From the NCBI GenBank assembly GCA_028713125.1, contig JAQTOU010000001.1, forward strand, positions 78,273 through 142,272: a stretch of 64,000 nucleotides of DNA. Reading direction: 5' to 3'. This stretch comes from Elusimicrobiales bacterium (lineage in GTDB: Bacteria; Elusimicrobiota; Elusimicrobia; Elusimicrobiales; UBA9959). Below are positions 26,187-61,122 of the stretch, piece after piece (position 1 is the stretch's first letter; each line of letters begins with the position of its first letter). The translations under genes and the position numbers were made by a program. The notes under the pieces are model-generated. The model was given only the letters and a program-made list of their open reading frames with translations. It did no database searches and was not told where the DNA came from.

Positions 26187-26762
26187 ATGAAAGCCCTGGA
26201 GATACTTCTTATAGCCGTGGGCCTCTCCATGGACGCCTTCGCCGTTTCGCTCGCGAGCGGGGCTACCATGAAGCGGCTCCATCTCCCGAACGCGCTGAAA
26301 ATGGGCTTTTTCTTCGGCGGCTTCCAGGCCTTTATGCCGGTGCTGGGCTGGGCCGCCGGCCTGAACATGAAGAATTTTATTTCCGCCTGGGACCACTGGA
26401 TAGCCTTCGTGCTTCTTTTCGCGGTGGGCGGCAAGATGGTCTATGAAGCCTTCAAGCTGAAGGAAGAGGAGGAATGCGGCGGGCCTAAAACCTGCCCTTT
26501 CGATACCGGTACGCTCACCGTGCTGGCCCTCGCCACAAGCATTGACGCGCTGGCCGTCGGGCTGACCTTCTCCCTGCTGCAGGTCTCGATAATCACGCCC
26601 GTCCTGGTCATCGGGCTCGTGACTTTCCTTATGTCGGTGGCCGGGGTCAAGATCGGCTCGAAGGGCGGCCATTTCTTCGAGCACAAGATGGAGGCCGCGG
26701 GCGGCTTTATCCTGATAGCCATCGGCCTTAAAATACTCCTGGAGCACCTGGGCTTTTTCTAA
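26187..26762 (+). CDS. mntP: Manganese efflux pump MntP
   Basis: 191 aa. The N-terminus LLIAVGLSMDAFAVSLASG and the internal repeat ALATSIDALAVGLTFS are typical of MntP/YebN. Confidence 0.85.
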   Translation: MKALEILLIAVGLSMDAFAVSLASGATMKRLHLPNALKMGFFFGGFQAFMPVLGWAAGLNMKNFISAWDHWIAFVLLFAVGGKMVYEAFKLKEEEECGGPKTCPFDTGTLTVLALATSIDALAVGLTFSLLQVSIITPVLVIGLVTFLMSVAGVKIGSKGGHFFEHKMEAAGGFILIAIGLKILLEHLGFF

Positions 26763-26773
26763 ACCCGCATCTC

Positions 26774-27457
26774 CTACATCTTCTTGAACCACTTTTCCTT
26801 GCCGTACAGCTTCTGCATGCAGTCCTCGCAGAGGCCGTGCGTGAACCTGGCGCCGGAGCGCTCCTCCAGGTAAGTCTCTACTTTCTGCCAGAAGCCCTTG
26901 TCGTCGCGTATCTTTTTGCACTGCGCGCAGATCGGGATAAGGCCCTGCAGCGTGCGCACGTCCTTCAGCGTTTCCTCCAGCTGGGTGTTCTTGCTTATCA
27001 GGTCGAGGTGGCCGGTTATGATCTCGCTGAATTCCTCCATCAGCCTGATTATAGTCCCCTCGAAATTATTGGGCTTCCGGTCGAAAATGCAGATGCTGCC
27101 GAAGATGTCCCCGTTGGGGTGGAAGATGGGCACGCCGGCGTAGGCCATATAGCCCGCCTTGGCCCCCTCGCTGTCCTTCCAGAAATCGCTTTTCCCCGCG
27201 TCGGCTATTATCAGCTTCTCCCGCGATTCTATCACCGCCGCGCAGTAGATCTTAAGGCCGGGCTTCAGCTTTATGATATCGTCGGACTCGTGCGGATTGC
27301 CGGCCCCCCCGCCGGGAGCGATGACCCTGATGCTGTCCTCCTCAACTATGTTTATCGTAGCGGCCGGGACCCCTGCCAGCTGGGCCAGCAGGTCGGCGAT
27401 GTTCCGCCACTTCAGCAAGGCTATGTCTGGAATGCGCAGTTTATTTGTGTCGGTCAT
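26774..27457 (-). CDS. GAF-domain protein with C-terminal CxxC-x26-HxxCxxC module
   Basis: 227 aa. GAF core (YMAYAGVPIFHPNGDIFGSICIFDRKP), a coiled linker, then LIPICAQCKKIRDDKGFWQKVETYLEERSGARFTHGLCEDCMQKLYG. AAGAGG RBS. Last gene of the TBDR/PBP/HK operon. Confidence 0.8.
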   Translation of the reverse strand: MTDTNKLRIPDIALLKWRNIADLLAQLAGVPAATINIVEEDSIRVIAPGGGAGNPHESDDIIKLKPGLKIYCAAVIESREKLIIADAGKSDFWKDSEGAKAGYMAYAGVPIFHPNGDIFGSICIFDRKPNNFEGTIIRLMEEFSEIITGHLDLISKNTQLEETLKDVRTLQGLIPICAQCKKIRDDKGFWQKVETYLEERSGARFTHGLCEDCMQKLYGKEKWFKKM

Positions 27458-27465
27458 ATTACCTC

Positions 27466-27909
27466 TTAAAGCGGCAGCTTCGATACTGAAACCCAGTACT
27501 GCTCGAACTTCCGGGCGAGCTCCAGGAACTCTTCCAGGGACGCGGGTTTGGTTATATAGGAAGCCGCCCCGTTCTCATAGCTGCGCACCATGTCTTCGTG
27601 CCTGGACGAGGTGGTCAGCATCACCACCGGTATCGCGCGCAGCGCCGGGTCCGCCTTCAGGCGCTTCAGGAGAGCGATCCCGTCCATCAGCGGGAGCGTG
27701 ATGTCCAGCAATATTATCGACGGGCGGAGCGGCTTCTGCCCCCCTTTGCTGCCCGAGGCCGTAAGCATGTCCAGCGCCTCCTGTCCGTCGCGGGCTACGG
27801 CCACGGCGGAGATGAACTTGAATTCCTGGAAGGCCCGCTGGGCGATGAGTACGTCGTCCTCGTTGTCCTCCACCAGAAGCAGACTAAGGTTTTTTATTTC
27901 GCTGTTCAT
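27466..27909 (-). CDS. Single-domain response regulator (receiver only)
   Basis: 147 aa. LLVEDNEDD, phospho-acceptor region IILLDITLPLMDG, TTS and YITKP. No output domain. Confidence 0.9.
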   Translation of the reverse strand: MNSEIKNLSLLLVEDNEDDVLIAQRAFQEFKFISAVAVARDGQEALDMLTASGSKGGQKPLRPSIILLDITLPLMDGIALLKRLKADPALRAIPVVMLTTSSRHEDMVRSYENGAASYITKPASLEEFLELARKFEQYWVSVSKLPL

Positions 27910-27918
27910 TTTCCCTCC

Positions 27919-29766
27919 TCAAGTTCTTTTGCTCAGGTCGGCGGGGATCAGGGTGTAGAATACCGAGCCTTTCCCTTCCTCCGACTCTATCCAGATCTTG
28001 CCGCCGTGTTCTTCGGCTATCTTTTTAACTATGGCCAGCCCGGCGCCGGTGCCGCCGCCGTATTCCTGGCGCGAGTGCAGCCGCTTGAATATCTTGAAGA
28101 CCTCTTCGAAATACTGGCTGGGGATGCCTATCCCGTTGTCCTTTACCAGGAACTTCCAGTAGTATTCGCCGAATTTCTCCGCGCTTATCTCCACTTCAGG
28201 CACCGGCTTGTCGTTATATTTTACGGCATTGCTGACCAGGTTCTGGAAAAGCTGGCGGATCTTTACCGGGTCGCAGAACAGCTCCGGCAGGCCGTCCGAG
28301 ACCTTCACCACGGCCTTGCGCTCCTCCAGCATTACGGAGAGCCCGGCCACCGCCTCCCGCGCAAGGGCGGCGGTAGAGGCGTACTCATAGGGATTGCGGA
28401 CCCGCGCCACCCGGGCGTAGCTTAACAGGTCGTCGATAAGCCTTCGCATCCGGCCGGAGGCCTTGACCACCCTGGCGATATAGTCGGCCGCCTGCGGCTC
28501 CAGCTTCGCGGAATAATCGGACAGGAGCATGCCGGAGAACATTTCTATGCCGCGCAGCGGCTCCTTCAGGTCGTGCGAGACCGTGTGCGCGAAAGAGTCG
28601 AGCTCGTCGTTGACCGTTTCTACTTCTTTCAGGTACTGCGCCATCTTGGCCTCGGATTCCTTATGCCGGGTAGTGTCTTTAAGGAGCGAGACTACCTGCC
28701 TGCTGCCTACCCCGCCGATAAAGGCGGCGGAAAGCATTACAGGCAGCCGCTTGCCGTCCTTGCTCTTGAACCAAAGGTCCAGCTCCTTTATGTGGCCGCC
28801 CCAGGACAGTAGGGCGAAAGGCTCCGCCGCGCCCTCCGTCTGCGGCTCCAGCAGCTCTTTGAGGTTCATCGAGCCCGGCGGGAGGAAGTCATAGCCGGAG
28901 AAGTCCTCCGCGGCCCGGTTGCTCTTGAGGATCTTGCCGGCCTCGTCGGTGATTATGAGCGGGTCCGGCATGCTTTCGAGGACCGAGTCCAGGTATTCCT
29001 TGGAGACCGTGGTCTCGGAGAGGCCGCGGTTCAGCTTATTGAAGCTCTCCGTCACCTCGCCTAATTCGTCCCTGGAGATCACCGGCACTAAAAAATCATA
29101 ATTTCCCGCGCGCGCTTTGCGTATGCCTTCCCTCAGCAGGTAGACCTGCCGCAGTATTACGCTGGAAAAGATCGCTGAGAGCACGATGGCCGCGGCCGAG
29201 ATCAGGAGCGCCAGGACGAGCAGCTTATACAGGATGGCTCTTTCCGCCTTGCGCGCCGTGGTCAGCGGGAGGCCGGCGCGCAGGAAACCCGCGCTCTTTC
29301 CGACGGCGTCGGCCCCCTGGAAAAGAATATCTTCGGCCGAGGCGGGCAGGCCGGCCGGGACGGGGATGATCGTATCTACGACCTCGTCGCCGCCGTGCAG
29401 GACCCTGCGGAACAGCGGCACCGATGTCTTGGCCGCCTTGATCAGCAGCTGGTCCTTCATCTTAGTGCCGGTCAGCGCCACATTGGTATGCGCGATCACC
29501 GTGCCGTCGGCGGTGACAAGGCCCGAATAGACCGCCCCCGTCTTCTGGGCGAAGGTGTGCAGAGCCTTGATTCCGTCAAGCTCCTTCCCTGAAACAAAAG
29601 CTTTCTGGAAGGAGAGGGCCTGGTCAGCCGCCACCATGGCGGCCGAGTCAGCTATCTGCGCGCTCATTGCTTCCGAAACCGCCAGGCCCGAGAAGTGCAT
29701 GTTTATCAAAAAGGCGGAGCCTGTGAGGAACAATATGAAGGCGACTATTTTCAGGTATAGTTTCAT
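27919..29766 (-). CDS. Sensor histidine kinase: TM, periplasmic Cache/PDC-like domain, TM, HAMP, PAS, HisKA, HATPase_c
   Basis: 615 aa. Two TM segments flank a ~170-aa periplasmic region (..GAVYSGLVTADGTVIAHTN..). H-box FAHTVSHDLKEPLRGI, N-box LVSNAVKYN, G-boxes DNGIGIP and GTGAGLAIV. ATGA overlap with the upstream gene. Confidence 0.9.
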   Translation of the reverse strand: MKLYLKIVAFILFLTGSAFLINMHFSGLAVSEAMSAQIADSAAMVAADQALSFQKAFVSGKELDGIKALHTFAQKTGAVYSGLVTADGTVIAHTNVALTGTKMKDQLLIKAAKTSVPLFRRVLHGGDEVVDTIIPVPAGLPASAEDILFQGADAVGKSAGFLRAGLPLTTARKAERAILYKLLVLALLISAAAIVLSAIFSSVILRQVYLLREGIRKARAGNYDFLVPVISRDELGEVTESFNKLNRGLSETTVSKEYLDSVLESMPDPLIITDEAGKILKSNRAAEDFSGYDFLPPGSMNLKELLEPQTEGAAEPFALLSWGGHIKELDLWFKSKDGKRLPVMLSAAFIGGVGSRQVVSLLKDTTRHKESEAKMAQYLKEVETVNDELDSFAHTVSHDLKEPLRGIEMFSGMLLSDYSAKLEPQAADYIARVVKASGRMRRLIDDLLSYARVARVRNPYEYASTAALAREAVAGLSVMLEERKAVVKVSDGLPELFCDPVKIRQLFQNLVSNAVKYNDKPVPEVEISAEKFGEYYWKFLVKDNGIGIPSQYFEEVFKIFKRLHSRQEYGGGTGAGLAIVKKIAEEHGGKIWIESEEGKGSVFYTLIPADLSKRT

Positions 29767-30638
29767 GGGAAAAGATAGCCCGCCTCGTCGAGTATTGAGC
29801 CGGGGAAGACTATCCCCAGCTTAGCGGCGGCGGAGGCGTTCAGGGTTATTTCAACTTTTCCGGGGAACACCGCTCCCGTAGCGGGCTCTCCCTTCTCAAG
29901 GCTGAGCGCCGCTTTGGCGGCGGCCTTCCCCATCTCCGCGAAACTGACACCCAGCGAGGCCACGGCGCCCTCCCTGGTCATGCTTTTAGTGGAGCCGTAA
30001 AATGGTATCCCGTTCTCCCAGGAAAACTCCTTCAGAAGCCTCAGGGTCTGCGGCGTTATTATCTGCGGGTCCGGGGCCAGCCAGATAGCGTCCGCGGCGC
30101 CCATGGTGCGGCGGAGAGCGGCCGGCAGGGCGTCCTGGTTTTCCAGCCTGACGGTAGTGACCTGTATGCCTTCGCGGACGCCTTCAGCTCTAACGGTCTG
30201 GGCGTAAGGGTTGGTTTCCGGGACCACCCAAAAGATCCACAGGCGCTTCAGCCCGGGCTGTATTTGCTTAAGCTTGGCGAACGTTATAGGAAAATCTGGG
30301 ATCAGGCTGATCTTGACGTTCTTTGCTCCGCTAGCGGCCGTGCCTGTAAAAACTCCGGGGGCCAGGCAGTCAATTACATTCAGCCCGGCCGGATAGGGAT
30401 AGTTTGCCGCTCTGCCGCCGAAAGCCACCACCAGCCGGGTCTCCTTCTCCAGCTCCGGCTTCTGCCTGGAGAGGTCGTAGTGAGCCACTTCCCCGCCGTA
30501 AGCCGCCTGGAAAGCGGAGAAAGCTTCCATGTAAACCCCGCTCTCCATTGAAAGCACGGCGACCGTCTCCCGGGGCGCGCCAGCGTAGCCCGGGGCGGCC
30601 GACAGTAAGAGCAAAATATACGACGGGGATAGTCTCAT
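29763..30638 (-). CDS. Orphan periplasmic solute-binding-protein-like protein, copy B (resembles the ABC_sub_bind/COG2984 type)
   Basis: 291 aa. Signal peptide present. Motifs DAIWLAPDPQIIT and NGIPFYGST are shared with 32697..33563 and 58048..58905. No adjacent permease or ATPase gene. Confidence 0.65.
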   Translation of the reverse strand: MRLSPSYILLLLSAAPGYAGAPRETVAVLSMESGVYMEAFSAFQAAYGGEVAHYDLSRQKPELEKETRLVVAFGGRAANYPYPAGLNVIDCLAPGVFTGTAASGAKNVKISLIPDFPITFAKLKQIQPGLKRLWIFWVVPETNPYAQTVRAEGVREGIQVTTVRLENQDALPAALRRTMGAADAIWLAPDPQIITPQTLRLLKEFSWENGIPFYGSTKSMTREGAVASLGVSFAEMGKAAAKAALSLEKGEPATGAVFPGKVEITLNASAAAKLGIVFPGSILDEAGYLFP

Positions 30639-30641
30639 CTT

Positions 30642-32642
30642 TTAAAACCGGTACTCAAAAGTATACTCTAAGCGGCGGCCGGAATACAGCGGAAGGGACT
30701 CGACCGCGCGCAGGCGCGCATATTCCGGGTAAAGCACGGTATGGCCGGTCAGGTTCCGGGCCGCAAGAACGTGGCGCATAGCGCCTTTCCTGTAGCCGAG
30801 GCTGACATCGATCCAGAGCTGCGGGTCTACGTGGCCGCGGAGGGTGCGGTTCCTGCCATAGCCGTTGAAGTTGGAAGCCAGGAAGAAGTCCCCGAGGTTA
30901 TGGGAAACCCCGCCTGATATCGTATAGGCCGGGACATATTTGAAGTTCCAGGAGCTGCCGCCGGTAACCGCATGCTCGTCGCCGCGGCTGGCGTTGAGCC
31001 GCTCCAGGGCCAGGAAGGCGCTTGTCCGTTTGCCTTCATAGCGCCCCTCCAGCTCCAGGCCGCTGGAATTGTAGTCGGGGGCGTTGTCGTAATAGTTTAC
31101 CGCGGTGTAGGCGGTGCCGTCCCGGGCGAAGTCACCGAGGTTGCGGTAAATAGTGTCTGAATATTTAGCGTAGTAAGCTGTCACATGGCCAAAAAATTTA
31201 CCCCGGGAGGCAAGATAGGAGAGCTCGAAAGTGTCCGTCCTCTCGGGATCGAGGCCGGGGTTCCCCAGCACGGTTACCGTGGAAGGATGGAAATACTGTT
31301 CGAACGGCGTCGGGGAGCGGAAGGACTGGCTGAACAGCGCCTTAAGACTGTTGACCTCGTTAAACAGGTAGATCGCGGACGCCCTTGAGGACAGGTTATC
31401 GCCGGTCTTCGTATTGTGAGTATAGCGGCTTCCCGCCAGGAGCTTCCACTTTTCGCTTTCGTAGCCCAGCTGGGCATGAGCGGAAACCTCGTCGCTCAAT
31501 CTGCCGCTCATCTCGTTATCGCTCTCCGGAACGCCTGTATTGCTGAAATAATTCAGGTAGTGCCGGACATAGCGGTATTCATATGTGCTCCCGCCTTCCA
31601 GGTAAAAGGCTTTTGGCAGGTCCGCGCGTCCGCTCAGCGAATTTATGAAGCGCGCCCCTATGATGTCGGAGCGCACATTGTCGCTGGCGTCCCGAGGGAT
31701 GCTGCGGTGCTGCCAGTCGTAGGTGACGGTGTATTTCAGGCCGCCCCAGTGGGGCGCGAAGTCATAGGCGTAGCTGGCCAGGGCGGCTTCGCGCGAAGCG
31801 TTGAAGAGTTCTCCGCTGGCCAGCGTCAGGCTGTTGCCGAAGTAATTCTGATCGTTGCGGGCGGCGTTGACCAGGAGGGTGCTTTTTCCGCGCGTCCCCG
31901 TAAAGTTAAAGCTGCGGGCGTGCAGGTAATCCCTGACCGCGTTCACGTCCCCGTTCTCGTCGGAGAAGCGGAACACCGGCTGCGCTTTGTTATAGGAGTC
32001 GGCGGCCAGGGTGTAGGAAGCCTGCTTGCCGCTCCAGGCGTAGAGGCCGCTGGCGCGGGAGACATCCCCGCTGTCGCCATAGCCTCCGGCGCCGGACCCC
32101 AGGCCGCCGCCGGCGAGGCCCAGGCTGGCGGCGGTCCCGGCCGGCTTGCGTAAAACTATGTTTATGGCCCCGGTAAGCGCGTTGGACCCGTAGAGCACCG
32201 AGGCCGGGCCGAGCAGAACCTCTATCCGCTCGACGGAAGCTATCCCCACCCGGTCCAGGTCGCCCTCTCCGGTCACGGCGTTCCACATAGGCACATTATT
32301 TATCATCACAAGAACTTTATCCGCGTAATGCTCCTGCAGGGCCCCGCGGATGGTTGGGACATTGTGCATCAGGTAGGTGCGCAGAACCATCATTCCCGGC
32401 ACTATTTCCAGCGCCTCCGATACGGAGGCGAAGTTATAGCGCTCTATCATCTCCCTGCTTATGACCGTTATATTGGAGACGCTGTTGAACACGGTTTCCG
32501 GCGCGTCCGAGGCGACGGTAAGGTTTTTGGCCTCCTCGGTCATGAAGCTCCAGAATTCCGAGCTTTCGTCCTGTGCCCGGGCCGGCGCGGCCGTCAGTAC
32601 CGCGGCAAAAAAGATCAGGCTGGTCAATAATTTCAGGTTCAT
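30642..32642 (-). CDS. TonB-dependent receptor, copy B
   Basis: 666 aa from the ATG at 32642 (MNLKLLTSLIFFAAVLTAAPARAQ); the track start at 32663 is also possible. Plug motifs IEVLLGPASVLYGSNALTGAINIV. C-terminal ..YTFEYRF. Confidence 0.85.
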   Translation of the reverse strand: MNLKLLTSLIFFAAVLTAAPARAQDESSEFWSFMTEEAKNLTVASDAPETVFNSVSNITVISREMIERYNFASVSEALEIVPGMMVLRTYLMHNVPTIRGALQEHYADKVLVMINNVPMWNAVTGEGDLDRVGIASVERIEVLLGPASVLYGSNALTGAINIVLRKPAGTAASLGLAGGGLGSGAGGYGDSGDVSRASGLYAWSGKQASYTLAADSYNKAQPVFRFSDENGDVNAVRDYLHARSFNFTGTRGKSTLLVNAARNDQNYFGNSLTLASGELFNASREAALASYAYDFAPHWGGLKYTVTYDWQHRSIPRDASDNVRSDIIGARFINSLSGRADLPKAFYLEGGSTYEYRYVRHYLNYFSNTGVPESDNEMSGRLSDEVSAHAQLGYESEKWKLLAGSRYTHNTKTGDNLSSRASAIYLFNEVNSLKALFSQSFRSPTPFEQYFHPSTVTVLGNPGLDPERTDTFELSYLASRGKFFGHVTAYYAKYSDTIYRNLGDFARDGTAYTAVNYYDNAPDYNSSGLELEGRYEGKRTSAFLALERLNASRGDEHAVTGGSSWNFKYVPAYTISGGVSHNLGDFFLASNFNGYGRNRTLRGHVDPQLWIDVSLGYRKGAMRHVLAARNLTGHTVLYPEYARLRAVESLPLYSGRRLEYTFEYRF

Positions 32643-32696
32643 GCTATTTCTTCCAGGTTTCATGAGATTATATAGGGGCCGGCGCTACCGCCGGCT

Positions 32697-33563
32697 TTAC
32701 GGATATCTGAATTCCGCTTCATCCAATACCGCGCGCGGGAACTTAAGGCCGCATTTGGCGGCGGCGTCGGAGTTAATTGTTATTTCCGCCTGCCCCGGGA
32801 AGATGGTCTCCGGCAGGATGTCGCCTTTCCTGAGCTCGAGCGCCGCCGCGGCGGCGGCTTTCCCCATCTCCGAGAAACTGACCCCGATAGAGGCCGCGGC
32901 GCCATCCCTGGTCATCCCTTTTGTCGACCCGTAAAAGGGTATCCCGTTGGCCCATGAGAAGTCCCTCATGATCGTAAGATTTTCCCGGGTGATAAGCATG
33001 GGGTCCGGCGGTATCCAGAAAGCGTCCGCAGTCCCGGGCAGCAAACGGAGGAGGGCAGGGAGCTCTTCCATGGAGATCAATTGCTTCGTGGTGACCTGTA
33101 TGCCCTGGCGCGCCGCTTCGATCTTCACGGTATCGATGTATTTGCTGAAGTCAGGCAGCATCCAGAAGATCTGCAGCCGACCGATCCCGGGCTGCATCTG
33201 TTTTATTTTACTGAAAACCACACTGAATTCAGGGACAAGGCTGATCTTGACCGCTTTTCCGCCGCCGGGAGCTTTAATGAAGATCCCGGGCGCCATGCAG
33301 TAGATAATGTCGGAGTCCCGGGGATAGCGGAGATTGGCCGCCCTGCCGCCGAAGACTACCACGGTGCGTATACCTTCGGACAGGTCCGGCTTATTACTCG
33401 AGAGGTCGTATTTATGCACGCTTTCACCGTAGTTTTTCTCGAAAGCCGTAAAAGCTTCCTGGTAGGCGCCCCCCCCGTAGGAAAGCACAGCGGCCGTATC
33501 TCCGGCCGCGGCGGCGGCCGGAAGCAGCAGCAGCGCGCAACAGGCGAGGCCCTTAAAACTCAT
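32697..33563 (-). CDS. Orphan periplasmic solute-binding-protein-like protein, copy A
   Basis: 288 aa. Signal peptide present. DAFWIPPDPMLIT and NGIPFYGST motifs. About half identical by eye to copy B. An 11-nt overlap with the upstream TBDR gene. Confidence 0.65.
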   Translation of the reverse strand: MSFKGLACCALLLLPAAAAAGDTAAVLSYGGGAYQEAFTAFEKNYGESVHKYDLSSNKPDLSEGIRTVVVFGGRAANLRYPRDSDIIYCMAPGIFIKAPGGGKAVKISLVPEFSVVFSKIKQMQPGIGRLQIFWMLPDFSKYIDTVKIEAARQGIQVTTKQLISMEELPALLRLLPGTADAFWIPPDPMLITRENLTIMRDFSWANGIPFYGSTKGMTRDGAAASIGVSFSEMGKAAAAAALELRKGDILPETIFPGQAEITINSDAAAKCGLKFPRAVLDEAEFRYP

Positions 33564-35520
33564 AGCCTGCCTTTAAAAAGATTTCACGGGAGGGCCCGGG
33601 CAGAGGCGCGTGCCCGCCGTTGTAGGGCTGTATATAACTGTAGTTGGATTTGAAAATATCCTTTACGCCCAGGTTCAGCGTAAGGCGCTTTATCGGGCGG
33701 TCACGGAGCTGCAGGTTGAAGTCCGCCATTATTCTCTCGCCGAAAACCCTGAGCGAGCCGTTTCCGGCGTAGCCGTACCTGCGGGAAATATAAATAGCCG
33801 ACGGGTTAGCGCTTAATGCGCCGGCGAGCGGGATGGAGGAGTTGAGCGTAACTTTGTGGCGCGGAAAGCCCAACAGGTAGGAACCGCGGCCGGGAACGCC
33901 GTAAACGTCCACCCGGTTCCCGGCGGCCGAATAAGTGGTGTAATCGGCGTTAAGGCGGGCGGCGCCGTTTTTATATTTCAGCCCGAAGCCGTAGCCGAGC
34001 GTGCCGGTGCGGTCGTAATTCCGGTAATACTCGTTCCCGGAGGTGTCCGTATAGAAAATTATGGGGTCATTTATGGTCGTGAGCGAGGCGCTCGCGTAGA
34101 GGTAAAAAAGGTCGCCGGCCTTGTACCCGGCTTCCGCTTCCATAACCGTGGTCCTTTCCGGCTTGATCCTGAACCCGTTATCGGAGGCGAGGCGGATATT
34201 CTCGATAGAAGGGGCCTTGAAGGCACTGCTGTAAATGGCTTTAAAGTTGAAATCACCGGCCTGCTTTGTCAGGGCCAGGCGCGGGACGAGCGAAGCCCCG
34301 CATTTAGAATGCTTGTCATAGCGGGCCCCGGCCACTATGGTCGCGGGACGGGCGTGGAGGGTGGCCTGCCCGAAGAGCGCGTAGTTTTCATAGTAGACCC
34401 GGTCGCGGCCGCTGCCGTATTGGGAAGCGGCGGCCGTGACCGGCTCGACTTTTACGGCGTCATGGGAATACTCTCCGCCGGCCAGCAGCTGCACCTCGTC
34501 CGACGGGGCATGGAAAGCGGTCAGCGATCCCGTAATGCGCTCGGTTTTTTTGTCGTAGGTAAAATGCTCGTCCTTCTCCACCCAGGCCATGCTCCGCGCG
34601 TAATTAAGTTTCGGTTCCAGGCGCAGGGTATCCGAAAGCCGCCAATCGTATCTGGTCTCGGCGAAAAAAGAAGGAAAGCCCACTTTGCCCGAGCCCGTTG
34701 CCAGGGCGGTCGTGAACTGGTCCCTGTCCCTCAGCTTGTAGTCGTCCTGTATGAACCTGGCCGATAAACCGCTTTTCGCCACGGAGACGTTGACGCTCGC
34801 GGGGCGGAGGTCGGACGTCCTGTTCATGTTATAGGAGAGGCCGCTGAAATCCGTGTACCGCCTGTCGCTGCGCTGGGCCTCGCCCCAGAAGACCTTGGCG
34901 GCGGCTTCAGTCCCGTCGAAATCCTTTCCGTACGACAGGCCGGCGTAATTCCTTGCGCGGGCGCCTTCCCCCTGCCCGTAGGCGGCAAAGGCCGAGGCGC
35001 CGCCGAGTTTTTTGGCCGGGAGGGTCCTGACGTTTATTACCGCCAGCTCCGCGAAGCCGCCGTAGATGACGGAGCCGGGGCCGCGGATGATCTCTATCTC
35101 GTCGATCTGGTCCACCGGGAAGCGGTCGAATTGAACGGTGGCGTAGAGGGTCTCATTATAAACCTGGCCGTCCCAGATAAGCAGCGCCTTCCCCTCGTTG
35201 GCCCAGTTGCCGCGCACGCCCAGCCCCAGATTGCCCTGCACGTCCATCCCGAAGTCGAATTCCGGGACCAGCTTCAGCACGTCGATAAGGTCGCGCGCTC
35301 CGCCGGCCTGGATCTCTTCGCGGGTGATGACCGTAACAAGGCCCGGGGTTTCGCGCAGCTTCATCGGGTTTCTCGTAGCTACGGAGGTGCGTATGTTAAG
35401 GGTTTCTTCCAGCGAGGCGCGCTCGAGGCTGAAAAATTCAGCTTCGTCGTCGGCGGCGCGCTGCGCCAGCGCGGGCCTGGCCGCGGCTAGAAAAAGCAGG
35501 CATAAGGCAAGACGGAACAT
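33553..35520 (-). CDS. TonB-dependent receptor, copy A
   Basis: 655 aa. Signal peptide present. Plug motifs ETPGLVTVITREEI and IEIIRGPGSVIYGG. C-terminal ..KAGYEF. Confidence 0.85.
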   Translation of the reverse strand: MFRLALCLLFLAAARPALAQRAADDEAEFFSLERASLEETLNIRTSVATRNPMKLRETPGLVTVITREEIQAGGARDLIDVLKLVPEFDFGMDVQGNLGLGVRGNWANEGKALLIWDGQVYNETLYATVQFDRFPVDQIDEIEIIRGPGSVIYGGFAELAVINVRTLPAKKLGGASAFAAYGQGEGARARNYAGLSYGKDFDGTEAAAKVFWGEAQRSDRRYTDFSGLSYNMNRTSDLRPASVNVSVAKSGLSARFIQDDYKLRDRDQFTTALATGSGKVGFPSFFAETRYDWRLSDTLRLEPKLNYARSMAWVEKDEHFTYDKKTERITGSLTAFHAPSDEVQLLAGGEYSHDAVKVEPVTAAASQYGSGRDRVYYENYALFGQATLHARPATIVAGARYDKHSKCGASLVPRLALTKQAGDFNFKAIYSSAFKAPSIENIRLASDNGFRIKPERTTVMEAEAGYKAGDLFYLYASASLTTINDPIIFYTDTSGNEYYRNYDRTGTLGYGFGLKYKNGAARLNADYTTYSAAGNRVDVYGVPGRGSYLLGFPRHKVTLNSSIPLAGALSANPSAIYISRRYGYAGNGSLRVFGERIMADFNLQLRDRPIKRLTLNLGVKDIFKSNYSYIQPYNGGHAPLPGPSREIFLKAGYEF

Positions 35521-35542
35521 TCTACCCCCCTAGAAACCGGAC

Positions 35543-35743
35543 CTAAGGCAGCGCGGCGGTCTTTCTCGGAACTATGAAAACCGCGGCGATATAGGCTATT
35601 ACGCCCGGCACGATCGCTGTAGCCAGCAGCAGGAAGACGAAGGCGAGCCGCAATACTACAGGGTCCACGTCGAAGTACTCCCCCAATCCTCCCAGGACCC
35701 CGGCCAGCACTTTGTTGGTTTCGCTGCGGTATAAATGCTTCAT
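35543..35743 (-). CDS. PspC-domain membrane protein
   Basis: 66 aa. LYRSETNKVLAGVLGGLGEYFDVDPVVLRLAFV is the PspC-domain consensus. It lies 22 nt upstream of TBDR copy A. Confidence 0.75.
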   Translation of the reverse strand: MKHLYRSETNKVLAGVLGGLGEYFDVDPVVLRLAFVFLLLATAIVPGVIAYIAAVFIVPRKTAALP

Positions 35744-35812
35744 GGCAATATTTTATAATATAAATGCGAAAGATATACCTCAAAACCGCTCCTGCCGTGC
35801 ATTTTTTCCTTA

Positions 35813-37276
35813 ATGCCGCTCCAGGAAAATAGTAATATTAACCTAATGACCGCGGACGTAATAATCATAGGCGCTGGAGTGACCGGGGCCGCCATTGCCA
35901 GGGAGCTCTCCCGCTACAAACTCAAGATCCTCATCCTGGAAAAGGAAGCCGAGGCCGCTTTCGGCGTCTCAAAGTCCAACAGCGGCATTATCCACGCGGG
36001 AACGCAGAACCCACCCAGTTCCTTGAAAGGCTGGCTCTGCGTGGAAGGCAACCGCCTTATACGCGAGGAGATAGCCGCTGACCTGGGCCTGGATTTCGCG
36101 CAGTGCGGGCAGTTGATAGCAGTTTTCGACCTTGCCGACCTCCCGGAGCTCGAGATAATAAAGAAGGAAGGCGAGGAACTGGGGGTCCGCGGCCTCGAAC
36201 TGGTGGACCGCGCCTGGCTGGACCTTAACGAGCCGAACATCAGCCCCGGCGTAAAAGCCGCGCTCCGCGTTCCGTCGGCTGGAATTATCAGTCCTTACCG
36301 GTTCGTCTACGCCCTGGTGGAGAACGCCGTAAAGAACGGAGCGGAGCTGAAGACCGAAAGGAAAGTCACCGGGATACGTCCGCAGAAAGGCGGCGGGTTC
36401 GAAGTAGTCGCGGGCGGCGAGGTCTTCCGCGCCCGTTTCCTCGTGAACGCGGCCGGCCTTTACGCGGATGAGATCTCGGCTATGGCGGGGGCCCCTACTT
36501 TTAAGATAACCCCCCGCAAGGGAGAGGAATACCTGCTGGACAAGAAGCGCGAGCACCTCTCTAACCACATACTTTTCCCCCTGCCGTCCGCGACCTCCAA
36601 GGGTGTCCTTGTGATAAAAACCGCCGACGGCAACCCTATGATAGGCCCTACCGCGCACGACGTGGAGGACAAGGCCGACCTCTCTACCACCGAGGAGGGG
36701 CTGGAGGAAGTGCTGGCGGGCGCGCGCCGGCTGATACCTTCCGTTTCCAAGAGCGATATCATCGCCTATTTCTCCGGCCTGCGGCCCGTCGCGGGAAAAG
36801 ATTTTATAATCCGCCATGAGGACTCCGCCCCCGGCCTCGTTAACGCCGCCGGGATCCAGTCCCCGGGGCTTACCTCGGCCCCCGCCATCGCCGTGATGGT
36901 GGCGGGTATTCTCAAGGAGCATGGCCTCGGGCTTGAGCCCAAAGAGGAATTCCGCCGCCTGCGGCCGCGTCCCGTGCATCTCTTCCAGGTTCCGCCGGAG
37001 GAGACCCGGCGGCTTATAGCGAAGAATCCCGCCTACGGCGATATCGTCTGCCGCTGCGAGCTGGTCTCGGCCCAGGAGATACGCGACGCGCTGAAGCGCG
37101 GGGCGCGCACCCTGGACGGCGTGAAATTCCGCACCCGGGCGCAATCGGGCCGCTGCCACGGCGGCTTCTGCACCACGCGCGTGATAAAAATAATGCAGGA
37201 GGAGCTCGGCCTGCCGGCCACCGCCGTCAGCAAGCGCGGCCGCGGCTCCGAACTTATAAAGGATGAAAGAAAATGA
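35813..37276 (+). CDS. FAD-dependent oxidoreductase, GlpA/LhgO-like, with C-terminal BFD-like [2Fe-2S] domain
   Basis: 487 aa (alternative start at 35846, MTADVIIIGAGVTGAA). GxGxxG motif and CRCELVSAQEIRDAL..SGRCHGGFC. First gene of a conserved trio with the DUF1667 gene. Confidence 0.8.
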   Translation: MPLQENSNINLMTADVIIIGAGVTGAAIARELSRYKLKILILEKEAEAAFGVSKSNSGIIHAGTQNPPSSLKGWLCVEGNRLIREEIAADLGLDFAQCGQLIAVFDLADLPELEIIKKEGEELGVRGLELVDRAWLDLNEPNISPGVKAALRVPSAGIISPYRFVYALVENAVKNGAELKTERKVTGIRPQKGGGFEVVAGGEVFRARFLVNAAGLYADEISAMAGAPTFKITPRKGEEYLLDKKREHLSNHILFPLPSATSKGVLVIKTADGNPMIGPTAHDVEDKADLSTTEEGLEEVLAGARRLIPSVSKSDIIAYFSGLRPVAGKDFIIRHEDSAPGLVNAAGIQSPGLTSAPAIAVMVAGILKEHGLGLEPKEEFRRLRPRPVHLFQVPPEETRRLIAKNPAYGDIVCRCELVSAQEIRDALKRGARTLDGVKFRTRAQSGRCHGGFCTTRVIKIMQEELGLPATAVSKRGRGSELIKDERK

Positions 37277-37506
37277 ACGTTATCTATCTCCGCCACGGCA
37301 GCCCTAAAGCCCGCAAGTTCATGAAAAAGAAATTGCGCCGGCGGCAGGACGCCTCGATCTATAATATCGAGGCCGGCGACTGCTGTCTCGCCCCCGCCCC
37401 TGTCAGGCGCGGGGATTATATGGTGACTTTCCTCGGAGACCTTTCCCCGGAGATGCTCGCCTTTATCTACCGCAGCGGGGCGTGGATCGGCCTTAGCCGG
37501 AACTGA
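37273..37506 (+). CDS. Possible small hypothetical protein
   Basis: 77-aa ORF filling an otherwise unexplained 250-nt gap. ATGA overlap with the upstream stop. Third codon positions are mostly G/C, as in neighbouring genes. No family recognised. Confidence 0.3.
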   Translation: MNVIYLRHGSPKARKFMKKKLRRRQDASIYNIEAGDCCLAPAPVRRGDYMVTFLGDLSPEMLAFIYRSGAWIGLSRN

Positions 37507-37525
37507 GAGGCGCGGCGAAACAAGC

Positions 37526-38521
37526 TTGAAAATGAAGAAAAGAGACCTGGTTATCGTGGGCGGAGGCCCCGCCGGCATGGCTGCAGCGCTGGCGGCCCGC
37601 GCCGCCGGCGTGCAAGACGTGCTCCTCCTCGAGCGCGACCAGTACCTTGGCGGCATTCTTAACCAGTGCATCCACCCCGGCTTCGGCCTGCACCATTTCA
37701 AAGAGGAACTGACCGGCCCCGAATACGCCGGCCGCTTCGCCGCGCTGGTCGCGGAGGACCGGGGCATAGAGGTCAGCCTGCGCTCCTTCGTCGTCAAGCT
37801 CACGAAGGACAAGGAACTTTCATATCTGCGCCCCGGCGCCCTTGAGGAGATCAAGGCGGGCTCGGTGATCCTGGCTACCGGCTGCCGCGAGCGCACCCGC
37901 GAGATGATCCCGATACCCGGGTCCCGCCCCGCCGGCATCTACCCCGCCGGCCTGGCGCAGAAGATGGTCAACATAGAGGGCTGGATCCCCGGCCGGGCGG
38001 CAGTGATAGTCGGCTCCGGCGATATCGGCCTGATAATGGCCCGCCGCATGGCGCTCGAGGGGATGGCCGTAAAGGCGGTCATCGAAATACAGAAGACCAG
38101 CCGCGGGCTCGTGCGCAACGTCGTGCAGTGCCTGGAGGATTTCAATATTCCGCTCTATCTGCGGCACCGCGTCTCGGCGATACACGGCCGTGACCGCGTC
38201 GAAAAGGTGCGCGTGGTGAAAGTGGACGACGCCTCCGTGGACGTCCCCGGCTCCGCTTTCGAGATAGCCTGCGACACCGTGCTGGTCTCGGTCGGGCTCA
38301 TTCCCGAGAACGAGCTGCTTGAGATGGCCGGGGCGGAGATAGACTTCAGGACCAACACCCCGGTAGCGCCCGGGGTGAACCTTACCTCTATCCCGGGAAT
38401 TTTCGCCTGCGGCAACGCCAGCAAGGTTTACGACCTGGTTGACTGGGTAACCCGTGACAGCGAGCTGGCGGGAAAAATGGCCGCGGAATATTTAGAAAGA
38501 CCGGAAGCCGCTGACCGATGA
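37526..38521 (+). CDS. NAD(P)/FAD-dependent pyridine-nucleotide-disulfide-type oxidoreductase
   Basis: 331 aa. Two dinucleotide folds (DLVIVGGGPAGMAAA; AAVIVGSGDIGLIMA). Confidence 0.8.
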   Translation: MKMKKRDLVIVGGGPAGMAAALAARAAGVQDVLLLERDQYLGGILNQCIHPGFGLHHFKEELTGPEYAGRFAALVAEDRGIEVSLRSFVVKLTKDKELSYLRPGALEEIKAGSVILATGCRERTREMIPIPGSRPAGIYPAGLAQKMVNIEGWIPGRAAVIVGSGDIGLIMARRMALEGMAVKAVIEIQKTSRGLVRNVVQCLEDFNIPLYLRHRVSAIHGRDRVEKVRVVKVDDASVDVPGSAFEIACDTVLVSVGLIPENELLEMAGAEIDFRTNTPVAPGVNLTSIPGIFACGNASKVYDLVDWVTRDSELAGKMAAEYLERPEAADR

Positions 38522-38880
38522 AAAGATCTATGACCTGCATAGAATGCCCGAAGGGCTGCCGGCTCGAAATAGACGCCGACGGCGCCAGGCTGATAAGCAT
38601 GAGCGGGCACGAGTGCAGCCGCGGCAGCCTTTACGCCCGGAGGGAGATCGAGGCTCCAGTGCGCACGCTTACCACTTCCGTCCTTACGCGGGGCCTTGAA
38701 CTAAAGATGCTGCCGGTGCGCACCTCGAAACCGATCCCGAAGGAAAAAATTTTCGAGGCCATGGCCGCCGTCAAATCGATAACGGTCACCACCCCGGTTA
38801 AGGCCGGCGCCGTGGTCGCCACGGATTTCCTCGGCCTTGGCGCGGACCTCATAGCCTGCCGGAGCCTGGGCAAGCCATGA
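38518..38880 (+). CDS. DUF1667-domain protein
   Basis: 120 aa. [21 protein letters not shown] matches the DUF1667 Cys pattern. A 4-nt overlap with the neighbour on each side. Confidence 0.75.
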
Positions 38881-39371
38881 AATATTTTATCCTGGCGCTC
38901 CTCTGCCTTACAGCCTGCTCGGAGAAGCCGCCTGCGGAGAACCGAACTATGGACGAGAAAAACAAAAAACTTACCCCCCTCCAGTACGAGGTCACGAAGA
39001 AATGCGGCACCGAGCCGCCTTTCAAGAACGAATACTGGGACAATCACCGGGCGGGGATTTACGTGGATATTGAAACAGGGGAGGCGCTGTTCGCCTCGAG
39101 CGATAAATTCGATTCCGGGTCTGGCTGGCCCAGCTTTACCCGCCCCATTAAAGCGGAAACCGTGGAAGAGAAAGCGGACGTTTCCCTGGGGGTCCAGCGT
39201 ACCGAAGTCCGCTCAAGATCCAGCGGCTCGCACCTCGGGCACGTATTCCCGGACGGGCCGGGCCCCGCCGGCCTGCGCTACTGCATTAACTCCGCGGCCC
39301 TGAAGTTCATCCCTCTCGAAGAAATGGAAAAAGCCGGCTACGGCAAGTACCTGCCGCAGGTAAAGAAGTAA
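38877..39371 (+). CDS. msrB: Peptide-methionine (R)-S-oxide reductase MsrB, lipoprotein form
   Basis: 164 aa. Lipobox LLCLTAC. GWPSF, HLGHVF and the catalytic RYCINS are present. Both CxxC zinc motifs are absent. Confidence 0.85.
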
Positions 39372-39384
39372 GGCCTGCCCGGGT

Positions 39385-40353
39385 TTATTTTTCCTTTCCC
39401 CTGAACCATTTCTCTTTCCCGTAAAGCTCCGCCATGCATTCTTTGCAGAGCCCGTGGGTGAAGCGGGCGCCGGAGTGCTTTTCCAGGTAAACCTCGACCT
39501 TCTCCCAGAAACCTTTGTCATCCCTGATCTTCTTGCATTTGGCGCAGATCGGGATAAGTCCGCGCAGCGCGTCCGCCTCCTGCATCGCTTCCTCCAGCCT
39601 CTTCCTCTCGGTTATATCGCGGGCGCTGGCATAAAAATATTCCGAGCCGTCTACGACGGAGTGGGTCGCGCTGATCTCCACCGGGAAAGAGGTCCCGTCC
39701 GCGCGGATGTGCCGGCCCTCTATAAAGAGGTGGCCGGAAGCTTTTATTTTTCCTCTCAGTTTTTCCCAGTCGCCGTGCGACGGCACCGTGGACTGTATGT
39801 CCGGCACGCCCATGCGCAGGAGAGTGTCCCGCCGGTAGCCCAGTCTGCGGCACGCGGTCTCGTTAAAGTCCAGGAAAGAGCCGTCTTCGGGGTTCACTAT
39901 GAAAATAGCGTCGTTGGAGGTTTCAAGGAGCTTGCGGAACAGGGCCAGGTCGTCATTAGCCTTTTTCAGCGCGGTGATATCGTTAATTACTCCCACCAGG
40001 ACGTCCTCCCCGCCCTCGTCCCTGAATACCTGCTTCCGCGTCTGGATGGCGCGCGTGGAGCCGGCGGCGTCCGTAAAGAACTCCTCGTTCACGGTCTGCG
40101 CGCGCGTAGCGAAGGTCTGATCGTCTTTTTTCCAGCAAACATCGGCCTGGACGGCCGGGAAAAAATCATGGTCGGTCCTCCCGAGAAGTTCCTCCCTGCT
40201 GTGGCCCATGAACTCGCAGCAGGCCTTGTTCATGTAGATCCAGCGGTGCTTCCTGTCTTTTACGAAGACCGGCGAGCCCACGGAATTAAGGATCTTCTCC
40301 AGTAGTTTGGTCGAGCGCAAAACAGCTCCGGTTATGTTTTTTTTCGCTTTCAT
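39385..40353 (-). CDS. Tandem-PAS protein with C-terminal CxxC-x26-HxxCxxC module
   Basis: 322 aa from the ATG at 40353 (strong GGGAGGGGA RBS). Two PAS domains, then LIPICAKCKKIRDDKGFWEKVEVYLEKHSGARFTHGLCKECMAELYG. Confidence 0.8.
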   Translation of the reverse strand: MKAKKNITGAVLRSTKLLEKILNSVGSPVFVKDRKHRWIYMNKACCEFMGHSREELLGRTDHDFFPAVQADVCWKKDDQTFATRAQTVNEEFFTDAAGSTRAIQTRKQVFRDEGGEDVLVGVINDITALKKANDDLALFRKLLETSNDAIFIVNPEDGSFLDFNETACRRLGYRRDTLLRMGVPDIQSTVPSHGDWEKLRGKIKASGHLFIEGRHIRADGTSFPVEISATHSVVDGSEYFYASARDITERKRLEEAMQEADALRGLIPICAKCKKIRDDKGFWEKVEVYLEKHSGARFTHGLCKECMAELYGKEKWFRGKEK

Positions 40354-40451
40354 GCTCCCCTCCCGAAGACCCATGCTTCAAAGCGCGCGGCCGGATGCGC
40401 CGCGGTCTGTACATTTTAGATAAAAAGGATACGGCCGGACAGGGAAATATA

Positions 40452-44678: not shown

Positions 44679-44832
44679 TTTTTCTCCCCTGTCCGCTGTT
44701 AACTATATTATATTCCCGAACGGCGCTGAGGAGCAAGTCTATTTACACAAGCCCGCCGTTTATCTTAAAATCATTCTTAGATCAGGCGGTCCCCGATCGC
44801 GGGACGCAGCCGGGCCAAGAGCAGCGGTTTAT

Positions 44833-44863
44833 CCGCGGGACTATAGTATCCCGCGGTTTTTTT
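44833..44863 (+). terminator. Intrinsic terminator inside the 5' leader of the P-type ATPase gene (attenuator candidate)
   Basis: An 8-bp stem ccgcggga/tcccgcgg (44833-44856, 8-nt loop) followed by T7 (44857-44863). It lies 22 nt upstream of the ATG at 44885. No plus-strand gene lies upstream. Confidence 0.6.
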
Positions 44864-58905: not shown

Positions 58906-58910
58906 GGAAT

Positions 58911-61100: not shown

Positions 61101-61122
61101 GTCCCCCCCCCACACCTGCGTT

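Follow-up and report, generated by a model that had tools for sequence, protein, structure and literature searches.

A 64 kb stretch of DNA from an Elusimicrobiales metagenome-assembled genome (MAG), referred to here as the window, contains one run of eight minus-strand genes that encode, in order, a PspC-domain protein, a TonB-dependent receptor (TBDR-A), a periplasmic binding protein (PBP-A), a second receptor and binding protein (TBDR-B and PBP-B), a histidine kinase, a receiver-only regulator, and a protein with a GAF domain and a cysteine (Cys) module. Judged from gene context and predicted folds, it seems that the receptors, binding proteins and signalling proteins of this run form a two-component sensing system, in which an outer-membrane-gated Cache kinase is assisted by PBPs; we put the probability of this reading at roughly 0.55.

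In such a system, TBDR-A and TBDR-B would each import a ligand that is unable to diffuse into the periplasm, where it would be captured by the orphan PF04392 binding protein adjoining each receptor. The binding protein would then act on the single-Cache domain of the one histidine kinase, in the manner of LuxP and LuxQ, and the kinase would control phosphorylation of the adjacent stand-alone receiver, with the output probably running via the co-conserved GAF protein and its likely zinc-binding C-terminal Cys module. We infer this whole chain of ligand import, capture, PBP-kinase contact, phosphotransfer to the receiver and output.

Gene order and its conservation

The genes of the run are closely packed, the recomputed gaps from the pspC gene to the GAF gene being 22, -11, 33, 3, -4, 9 and 8 nt. 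The 11 nt overlap of TBDR-A with PBP-A and the 4 nt overlap between the PBP-B stop and the kinase start suggest translational coupling. An earlier note on this DNA (the original prediction) had given the same coordinates and spacings, all of which are reproduced by the list of open reading frames (ORFs), but had counted nine genes in the run, where only eight are on the minus strand and both flanking genes are on the plus strand.

Related loci were obtained from a scan of one genome per species, which gave 61 loci (nearly all from Elusimicrobia), and from a scan of JGI metagenomes, which gave 80 more. In all loci, ORFs were called and compared with the window proteins, with a Cache N-terminus profile, and with chemoreceptor, CheA and CheW sequences; control queries for ATP-binding cassette (ABC) partners were a permease and an ATPase from each of two canonical PF04392 operons. 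Altogether, 144 PBP genes of the subfamily were examined in about 130 loci, and for none of the 144 did the locus hold a PF04392-type permease, or the surrounding 3 kb an importer ATPase. The homologues are thus not neighbours of ABC permease or ATPase genes, the arrangement that the original prediction itself had held to speak against it. Within the window, the sole ABC genes that Pfam recognised among the larger ORFs are fused exporter-type ones at 1331-4875, and no importer permease or ATPase was found; comparison by phmmer of all window ORFs of at least 90 amino acids (aa) with the canonical permease and ATPase queries gave no importer partner either, which agrees with the earlier observation that the PBP genes have no permease or ATPase nearby and that the only ABC genes are exporter-type. 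The reading as an ordinary ABC importer with a nearby permease was therefore rejected, none having been found in the window or in any related locus.

Where both flanks of the PBP gene could be read, a TBDR lies upstream and a Cache sensor downstream in 39 genome and 16 metagenome loci. A first TBDR-PBP module is followed by a second one in 5 cases, a TBDR lies upstream with no sensor downstream in 13, and CheW upstream with a chemoreceptor downstream in 10. The joint occurrence of TBDR, PBP and kinase without ABC genes, which the original prediction had proposed counting, is thus the layout of 55 loci. Dozens of further genomes and metagenome contigs have the identical gene order, which places the arrangement far beyond what chance would give, and the flanking genes differ among loci while the order of TBDR, PBP and Cache sensor stays. 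Outside Elusimicrobia, the trio occurs in a Latescibacterota MAG (L055) and in the metagenome contigs L067 and L068 (HisKA_2-type kinase core), and hybrid kinases lie downstream of the PBP in L049, L051 and L052. The output of the Cache sensor therefore varies, from HisKA, HisKA_2 and hybrid kinases to chemoreceptors in che operons. That the gene after the PBP nearly always encodes a sensor carrying this one Cache domain, whatever the sensor's output, is the pattern that would be expected of a PBP-sensor pair.

The che operons belong to an Acidobacteriota-like group (two named MAGs and soil-type metagenome contigs) and have the order cheY-cheA-cheW-PBP-MCP-MCP-cheR-cheB, where MCP stands for methyl-accepting chemotaxis protein. 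The PBP gene has cheW on one side and one or two Cache/HAMP chemoreceptor genes on the other (L069:4056-14503, L119, L123, L129, L137 and L138), and neither a TBDR nor a transporter is found nearby in the che-operon loci of this group. A PBP in such an operon would be hard to explain except as a co-receptor, and a transport role seems unlikely there.

Binding proteins and sensor domain

Profile searches and modelling both indicate that the proteins of around 290 aa are PF04392 type-I, two-lobe periplasmic binding proteins. PBP-A, PBP-B and a third such protein elsewhere in the window (PBP-C) all score above the Pfam gathering cutoff for PF04392 (ABC_sub_bind; 25.9 bits), with the profile match restricted to their C-terminal half. 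PBP-A and PBP-B are 54% identical, and PBP-C is 36% identical to either. The AlphaFold2 (AF2) model of PBP-B, made from an alignment of 68 homologues, has a mean predicted local distance difference test score (pLDDT) of 88.7, and its best Foldseek matches in the PDB are 3LFT (with L-Trp), 3LKV and CD0873 (6HNI/6HNJ), at TM-scores of 0.62-0.70, followed lower down by ribose-binding-protein-like type-I PBPs. The PBP fold of the original prediction, for which it had suggested a profile search, is thus borne out by profile and model alike. A family sequence profile also retrieves the PDB entries of 3LFT, 3LKV and CD0873, over the C-terminal lobe only. The family motif DAxWxPPDP stands where 3LFT has DAIWVPIDN, and in the profile alignment the conserved Asp of DAxWxPPDP and the Asn of an LN motif align with an Asp and an Asn of 3LFT.

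Full-length members of the subfamily form 233 clusters when grouped at 50% identity (E <= 1e-30), and PF04392 overall 10,445 clusters (E <= 1e-3). Exact look-up of the cluster of the window PBP-B gave no recorded contig. A tblastn search of plasmids with PBP-B returned distant canonical PF04392 genes only, which were used as ABC-linked controls; canonical, distantly related PF04392 genes (from P. aeruginosa and Rhizobium) are located in operons of a solute-binding protein (SBP), a permease and an ATPase.

The kinase has transmembrane helices at residues 1-26 and 174-211, enclosing a periplasmic domain of around 150 aa (approximately residues 27-173), and Pfam recognises HAMP, PAS, HisKA and HATPase_c domains in the remainder; the H box with H398 and intact N and G boxes can be read from the sequence. 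At E <= 0.01, Pfam does not recognise the periplasmic domain. Nonetheless, jackhmmer shows the first 200 aa to be homologous to the N-termini of all PBP-adjacent sensors in the related loci, and 36 of 48 such homologous N-termini match sCache_3_2 (PF17203). The AF2 model of the sensor domain (pLDDT 78, from a shallow alignment of 4 sequences) matches WalK, CitA, DcuS, KinD and DctB, with a WalK-YycH complex model as the top match and LuxQ periplasmic domains among the weaker ones. By homology and model, the periplasmic part of the kinase is a CitA/DcuS/WalK-like single Cache domain, so that its earlier description as Cache/PDC-like was right. In the genome loci, this Cache N-terminus is found only in the PBP-adjacent sensor and not in the other kinases of those loci; a homologue search with the N-terminal 249 aa of the kinase returned 3 proteins only.

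Receptors and modularity of the input

All three TBDRs of the window (TBDR-A, TBDR-B and the more distant TBDR-C) have a signal peptide, a plug domain and a terminal Phe. The mechanically called ORF of TBDR-C begins at a TTG at 61160, and the ATG that precedes the signal peptide lies 20 codons further in. Pfam finds no STN signalling extension on the TBDRs, whose plug begins at about residue 55-60, and no sigma/anti-sigma pair among the larger ORFs of the window, as had been stated before. The reading as a FecA-type transducer was rejected because neither an STN domain nor, among those ORFs, a sigma/anti-sigma pair was found. No TonB box is clearly readable in the TBDR N-termini. The best NCBIfam match of TBDR-A is the TOL_0244 family (NF053590), at 75 bits, with 80 bits for TBDR-B, and PBP-linked TBDRs from distant loci match TOL_0244 best of all families, over its full length, at 181-200 bits, all below the curated cutoff of 645. 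TOL_0244, whose name we take to come from a gene of Thalassolituus, a marine oil degrader, is thus the nearest curated family, but the TBDRs described here are not members of it.

In pairwise comparison, the three TBDRs are 22-23% identical. The original prediction had noted that PBP-A and PBP-B are about half identical and the two TBDRs far more diverged (54% versus 22%), which is correct, and had explained this by constraint on the PBPs while the TBDRs drifted, which is not. Orthologues are 51-66% identical for TBDR-A and 56-89% for TBDR-B, and when set against the PBPs, TBDR orthologues (51-71%) are better conserved than PBP orthologues (42-57%). Recent duplication of the PBPs, held alike by selection while the TBDRs drifted, was rejected, since the TBDRs belong to two old, well-conserved lineages.

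The core of the cassette in Elusimicrobia consists of TBDR, PBP, kinase, receiver and GAF/Cys protein, with a single input module in most genomes. Two-module cassettes like that of the window occur in L007, L014 with L006, L079, L090, L099, L101 and L107, and L031 has two TBDRs with one PBP. In L004, whose kinase is 98% identical to that of the window, module A has been deleted, leaving an in-frame remnant (L004:6219-6791) in which TBDR-A residues 1-108 are fused to PBP-A residues 195-288, the last 94. Of the earlier proposal of two inputs on one kinase, the dual layout therefore stands for the window, but not as a fixed feature, as most relatives have a single module and L004 retains only a remnant of module A.

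Comparison of window positions 26774-32663 with L004:6825-12715 gave a synonymous divergence of 0.10-0.16 for the kinase, receiver and GAF genes, versus 0.35 for TBDR-B and 0.55 for PBP-B. The ratio of nonsynonymous to synonymous divergence (dN/dS) is 0.04-0.18 throughout, so that by this measure the input and transmitter modules are both under purifying selection. The two to five times higher synonymous divergence of TBDR-B and PBP-B means that the input and transmitter modules differ in history, and it suggests that the input module was replaced by recombination.

Among 24 single-module cassettes, the PBP and the periplasmic domain of the kinase are the two fastest-evolving parts, with mean pairwise distances of 0.47 and 0.46, compared to 0.37 for the TBDR within one lineage, 0.28 for the GAF protein, 0.27 for the cytoplasmic part of the kinase and 0.22 for the receiver. 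PBPs that lie beside different TBDR lineages (TBDR distance 0.77) have a distance of 0.49, versus 0.45 for those beside the same lineage. The similarity of the PBPs thus tracks something other than the lineage of the adjacent TBDR, and to that extent the point made in the original prediction is kept.

Receiver, GAF protein and Cys module

The receiver is 71-99% identical across cassettes and has no effector domain; its acidic pocket, D69, and the T/S and K residues can be read from the sequence. In the GAF protein, the C-terminal module (26777-26977, minus strand) has the pattern C-x2-C-x26-H-x2-C-x2-C. Its alignment has a mean column identity of 84% with C17, C20, H47, C50, C53, W30, Y36 and F45 invariant, and its consensus, LIPICAxCKKIRDDKGFW..VE.Y....S.A.FTHGLC..C..LYG, is far more conserved than the rest of the proteins that carry it. 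Neither a significant PDB match nor any NCBIfam match was obtained for the module, and Pfam recognises only the GAF and PAS parts of the two full window proteins in which it occurs, the second being a PAS-PAS protein (Table 1). It is also found after GAF or PAS domains at L021:7665-7865, L016:4190-4390 and L033:3948-4148, and in L021 the Cys-module protein lies directly upstream of a TBDR.

The module has the look of a portable domain for output or interaction that probably binds zinc, and it may be an undescribed zinc-binding output domain. Small Cys/His modules of this kind often bind nucleic acids. For that reason, the non-transcriptional output of the original prediction cannot be claimed.

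Kinase-less modules and possible ligands

A third module in the window (58048-62400), consisting of a secreted M14 carboxypeptidase, TBDR-C and PBP-C, has no kinase, and the next gene, on the opposite strand, encodes endonuclease I. Pfam confirms this module as it had originally been described, and the order M14-TBDR-PBP is repeated in L032. A separate clade of kinase-less TBDR-PBP pairs (L038-L045) lies inside the same PBP radiation. Such pairs, at L041:6643-13836, L038:5428-10807, L043:3708-10320 and L045, are found beside major facilitator superfamily (MFS) transporters, M29 aminopeptidase, GNAT acetyltransferase and argG/argH.

The ligands in solved PF04392 structures are Trp, Tyr or Phe (PMC10443332). 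Because of these ligands and the peptidase genes beside kinase-less modules, our guess by analogy would be that an amino acid, some aromatic compound or part of a peptide serves as the ligand; the earlier hint at amino acids or peptides fits both the known ligands and the M14 and M29 neighbours. An M3 oligopeptidase F-like protein (41503-43323, minus strand) is also encoded in the window and is, like the M14 carboxypeptidase, consistent with a peptide-based lifestyle.

Comparison with known systems

The original prediction had held that no characterised example of such wiring existed, which is contradicted by a system published in 2023. One gene cluster of Cycloclasticus sp. P1 encodes the TBDR PahS (687 aa), the periplasmic SBP PahP (318 aa) and the kinase PahK (771 aa) (PMC10570129, PMC8547461), and polycyclic aromatic hydrocarbons are reported to be passed from PahS to PahP and on to PahK, on the strength of surface plasmon resonance, Förster resonance energy transfer, two-hybrid and mutant data (PMC10570129; Wang et al., iScience 2023). 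PahP, whose description is that of an SBP with two lobes and a hinge of three strands, like type-I PBPs, reportedly binds PahS tightly and then leaves for PahK once loaded (PMC10570129). The gene order TBDR, SBP, kinase is identical to that found here, and PahS is likewise without a sigma/anti-sigma partner. The two systems differ in that the Pah relay belongs to Gammaproteobacteria and has one input module, whereas the present cassette belongs to Elusimicrobia and has two; PahK is described as having no sensor domain in the periplasm, whereas the kinase described here has a Cache domain; and PahR is an unlinked GacA-type DNA-binding regulator, in contrast to the adjacent receiver-only protein and subsequent GAF/Cys protein of the cassette.

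PahP (Q91_0826) is like the PBPs described here in the fold ascribed to it, and a literature search found no family assignment for it. Where contigs carrying the subfamily are named, their assignments are Elusimicrobia, Latescibacterota, Acidobacteriota, Nitrospirota, Gemmatimonadota and Verrucomicrobiota. When homologues were searched from several seeds, most of the sequences returned were of Acidobacteriota type and none was from a named gammaproteobacterium; of the listed representatives, the ten weakest that bore names came from Elusimicrobia or Gemmatimonadota, and among the PBP relatives that could be named there was no proteobacterial sequence.

According to a review, the genes of SBPs by which sensor kinases are stimulated lie with signalling genes, and in LuxP-LuxQ, as in TorT-TorS and ChvE-VirA, a type-I PBP acts on a periplasmic PAS/Cache-like domain of the kinase (PMC8050422). 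The cassette resembles these pairs in that the orphan PBP-B gene adjoins that of a kinase with a periplasmic Cache domain, an adjacency that is kept in at least 55 loci. LuxP, too, is an orphan PBP, encoded directly upstream of its kinase and without an ABC transporter. It differs in being ribose-binding-protein-like and not a PF04392 protein, LuxQ differs in being a hybrid kinase with a tandem periplasmic domain, and there is no outer-membrane receptor in that operon. The canonical PF04392 importers (TrpX-type; 3LFT, 3LKV, CD0873) have both the Pfam family and the fold in common with the PBPs described here, but are encoded in SBP-permease-ATPase operons, compared to 0 of 144 genes in the present subfamily. 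With FecA-FecR-FecI the cassette shares a TonB-dependent outer-membrane receptor at the head of a signalling pathway; the signal would, however, travel by imported ligand and PBP, rather than by contact between receptor and anti-sigma factor. CitA, DcuS and WalK resemble the kinase in their periplasmic fold and in the layout of a Cache domain between two transmembrane helices, followed by HAMP/PAS and kinase domains, but these either bind the ligand themselves or rely on membrane partners. We know of no kinase of the CitA/DcuS/WalK type that pairs with a PF04392 protein or a TBDR.

Alternative explanations

A number of observations weigh against a relay from receptor via binding protein to kinase. 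Its support comes wholly from gene context and fold, and the related loci were gathered via family motifs, by which the sample is biased towards this PBP subfamily. TonB/ExbBD genes were not found within the 64 kb window in the Pfam scans of the larger ORFs. The closely related kinase-less TBDR-PBP pairs show that the pair can stand alone, probably as an uptake unit. Moreover, the core of the kinase Cache domain holds an invariant H93, followed by a near-invariant T94-N95, and CitA/DcuS-type single-Cache domains bind small ligands directly, so that the kinase may not need the PBP. The co-variation of PBP distances with Cache-domain distances (partial r 0.39, versus 0.20 with TBDR distances, the cytoplasmic parts being controlled for) fits PBP-sensor pairing, but is suggestive only, since the pairs in these data are interdependent and fast evolution is usual for periplasmic domains.

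The main rival, which we consider rather unlikely, is that uptake and sensing are separate: the PBP would be a periplasmic sink that passes its ligand to an inner-membrane carrier (e.g. of the MFS), while the kinase would sense that molecule, or a related small one, directly through the pocket of its Cache domain, and the genes would share an operon because they serve one physiological task. The kinase-less clade beside MFS, M29, M14 and argG/argH genes is consistent with this, as is the structural proximity of the sensor domain to the ligand-binding CitA, DcuS, DctB and KinD, together with its conserved core residues. It leaves unexplained, however, why the PBP lies directly upstream of a Cache sensor in che operons that have neither a TBDR nor a transporter, and why the Cache domain is restricted, in the genome loci, to neighbours of the PBP; to our knowledge, there is also no SBP-dependent MFS carrier. 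Less probable still would be a relay by contact without free shuttling of the ligand, in which the PBP, docked on the kinase or on the TBDR's periplasmic face, reports receptor occupancy or modulates independently of ligand. PahP on PahS, reportedly bound tightly until it leaves for PahK when loaded (PMC10570129), and YycH/YycI on WalK would be its models, and the overlap of the TBDR-A and PBP-A genes and the WalK-YycH complex as top match of the sensor domain are in line with it. Nevertheless, a lineage-specific TBDR-PBP interface is argued against both by the PBPs beside two unrelated lineages of TBDR (77% distant), which resemble each other nearly as closely as those beside orthologous TBDRs, and by the two TBDRs with one PBP in L031; the PBP also retains its full two-lobe binding fold.

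It could simply be that the tight packing reflects a compact genome and that the TBDR-PBP genes are unrelated to the two-component genes. Adjacency alone is indeed no proof, as the tightly packed PspC gene, which is present in only about half of the cassettes, illustrates. With the order of TBDR, PBP and Cache sensor found in 55 evaluable loci, some of them from other phyla and with differing flanks, this explanation is highly improbable and, by the conservation of the gene order, appears already close to refuted. The sensing relay by way of an imported ligand and a PBP is thus the reading that we prefer.

Surroundings of the cassette

The coordinates of the features discussed here are collected in Table 1. 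The candidate operon promoter lies in an AT-rich region, the sigma-70-like site being a pattern match only. Minus-strand terminator-like matches all lie inside coding sequence, with none in the short intergenic gaps, and an Rfam scan of the cassette and its upstream region found no riboswitch. The pspC gene adjoins the cassette in around 16 of 28 kinase-linked loci, where it is 77-100% identical across species; its product is among the best-conserved proteins at the locus, although it is found beside only about half of the kinase-linked cassettes, and may belong to the syntenic surroundings of the cassette and not to its working parts.

Divergent from the cassette, the genes for a DAO/BFD oxidoreductase, a small ORF and a Pyr_redox_2 protein (35813-38521, plus strand) are syntenic with L001:4696-7710 of Elusimicrobia GWA2_61_42, where the block continues with a DUF1667 gene and SelR; in the window, SelR is located at 38877-39371. 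The only Rfam match of the window is a NiCo (nickel/cobalt) riboswitch at 44768-44845 on the plus strand (38.5 bits, compared to a gathering score of 37), directly upstream of a P-type cation ATPase gene (44885-47440).

Table 1. Positions of the cassette genes, the third input module and adjoining features in the window
Feature	Position	Strand	Evidence and remarks
mntP	26187-26762	+	Flanks the run on the GAF-gene side
GAF protein with C-terminal Cys module of ~60 aa, candidate output protein	26774-27457	-	Pfam GAF only
Stand-alone CheY-like receiver	27466-27909	-	Pfam Response_reg only; D69 predicted phospho-acceptor
Sensor histidine kinase	27919-29766	-	TM1 (transmembrane helix 1), periplasmic single Cache, TM2, HAMP, PAS, HisKA (H398), HATPase_c
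PBP-B, secreted orphan PF04392 binding protein	29763-30638	-	PF04392, 52.1 bits
TBDR-B, second TonB-dependent receptor	30642-32663	-	Pfam Plug and TonB_dep_Rec_b-barrel
PBP-A, secreted orphan PF04392 binding protein	32697-33563	-	PF04392, 48.1 bits; N-terminal hydrophobic leader
TBDR-A, TonB-dependent receptor	33553-35520	-	Pfam Plug and weak barrel match; signal peptide; C-terminal Phe
PspC-domain membrane protein of 66 aa, first gene of the run	35543-35743	-	Pfam PspC, 77.6 bits; one hydrophobic span
Sigma-70-like promoter match, candidate operon promoter	35755-35783	-	Consensus scan, TTGAGG-17-TATTAT, just 5' of the pspC-domain gene
DAO/BFD oxidoreductase	35813-37276	+	Flanks the run on the pspC-gene side
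PAS-PAS protein with the same C-terminal Cys module	39385-40374	-	jackhmmer; Pfam PAS twice; module at 39394-39594
PBP-C, third orphan PF04392 protein	58048-58905	-	PF04392, 30.8 bits
TBDR-C	58911-61100	-	Pfam Plug; start set at ATG 61100
Secreted M14 zinc carboxypeptidase, head of the third module	61123-62400	-	Pfam Peptidase_M14, 226 bits

Significance

TonB-dependent receptors are usually viewed as nutrient importers or, when they carry an STN domain, as triggers of sigma factors. For a route in which a binding protein and a two-component kinase read the imported molecule in the periplasm, there is one experimental report, from a single marine bacterium. The concept thus has precedents; what is new is the combination of families and its spread over many Elusimicrobia genomes and some contigs from other phyla, as well as the swappable or doubled input modules, the relatives in chemotaxis operons and the Cys module. 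The organisms that carry the cassette are known only from metagenomes, and the approximately 55 loci that share the layout, in a largely uncultured phylum and some other-phyla contigs, provide concrete proteins with which the generality of the relay can be tested. The parts are defined, namely TOL_0244-like TBDRs, a transporter-less PF04392 subfamily and sCache_3_2 sensors, and DAxWxPPDP offers a sequence signature for finding further cases.

More tentatively, and at somewhat less than even odds, it can be proposed that this PF04392 subfamily has left ABC transport and become a dedicated periplasmic co-sensor for Cache receptors, both TBDR-fed kinases and the chemoreceptors of che operons, and that in Elusimicrobia the input modules have been swapped, doubled or lost before a fixed core of kinase, receiver and GAF protein, with output via a new, probably zinc-binding module of 60 aa. 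The presence of the same PBP family in chemotaxis operons extends the idea of the binding protein as a dedicated co-sensor and, if this reading of the subfamily is true, it would define a widespread, unstudied class of outer-membrane-gated signalling.

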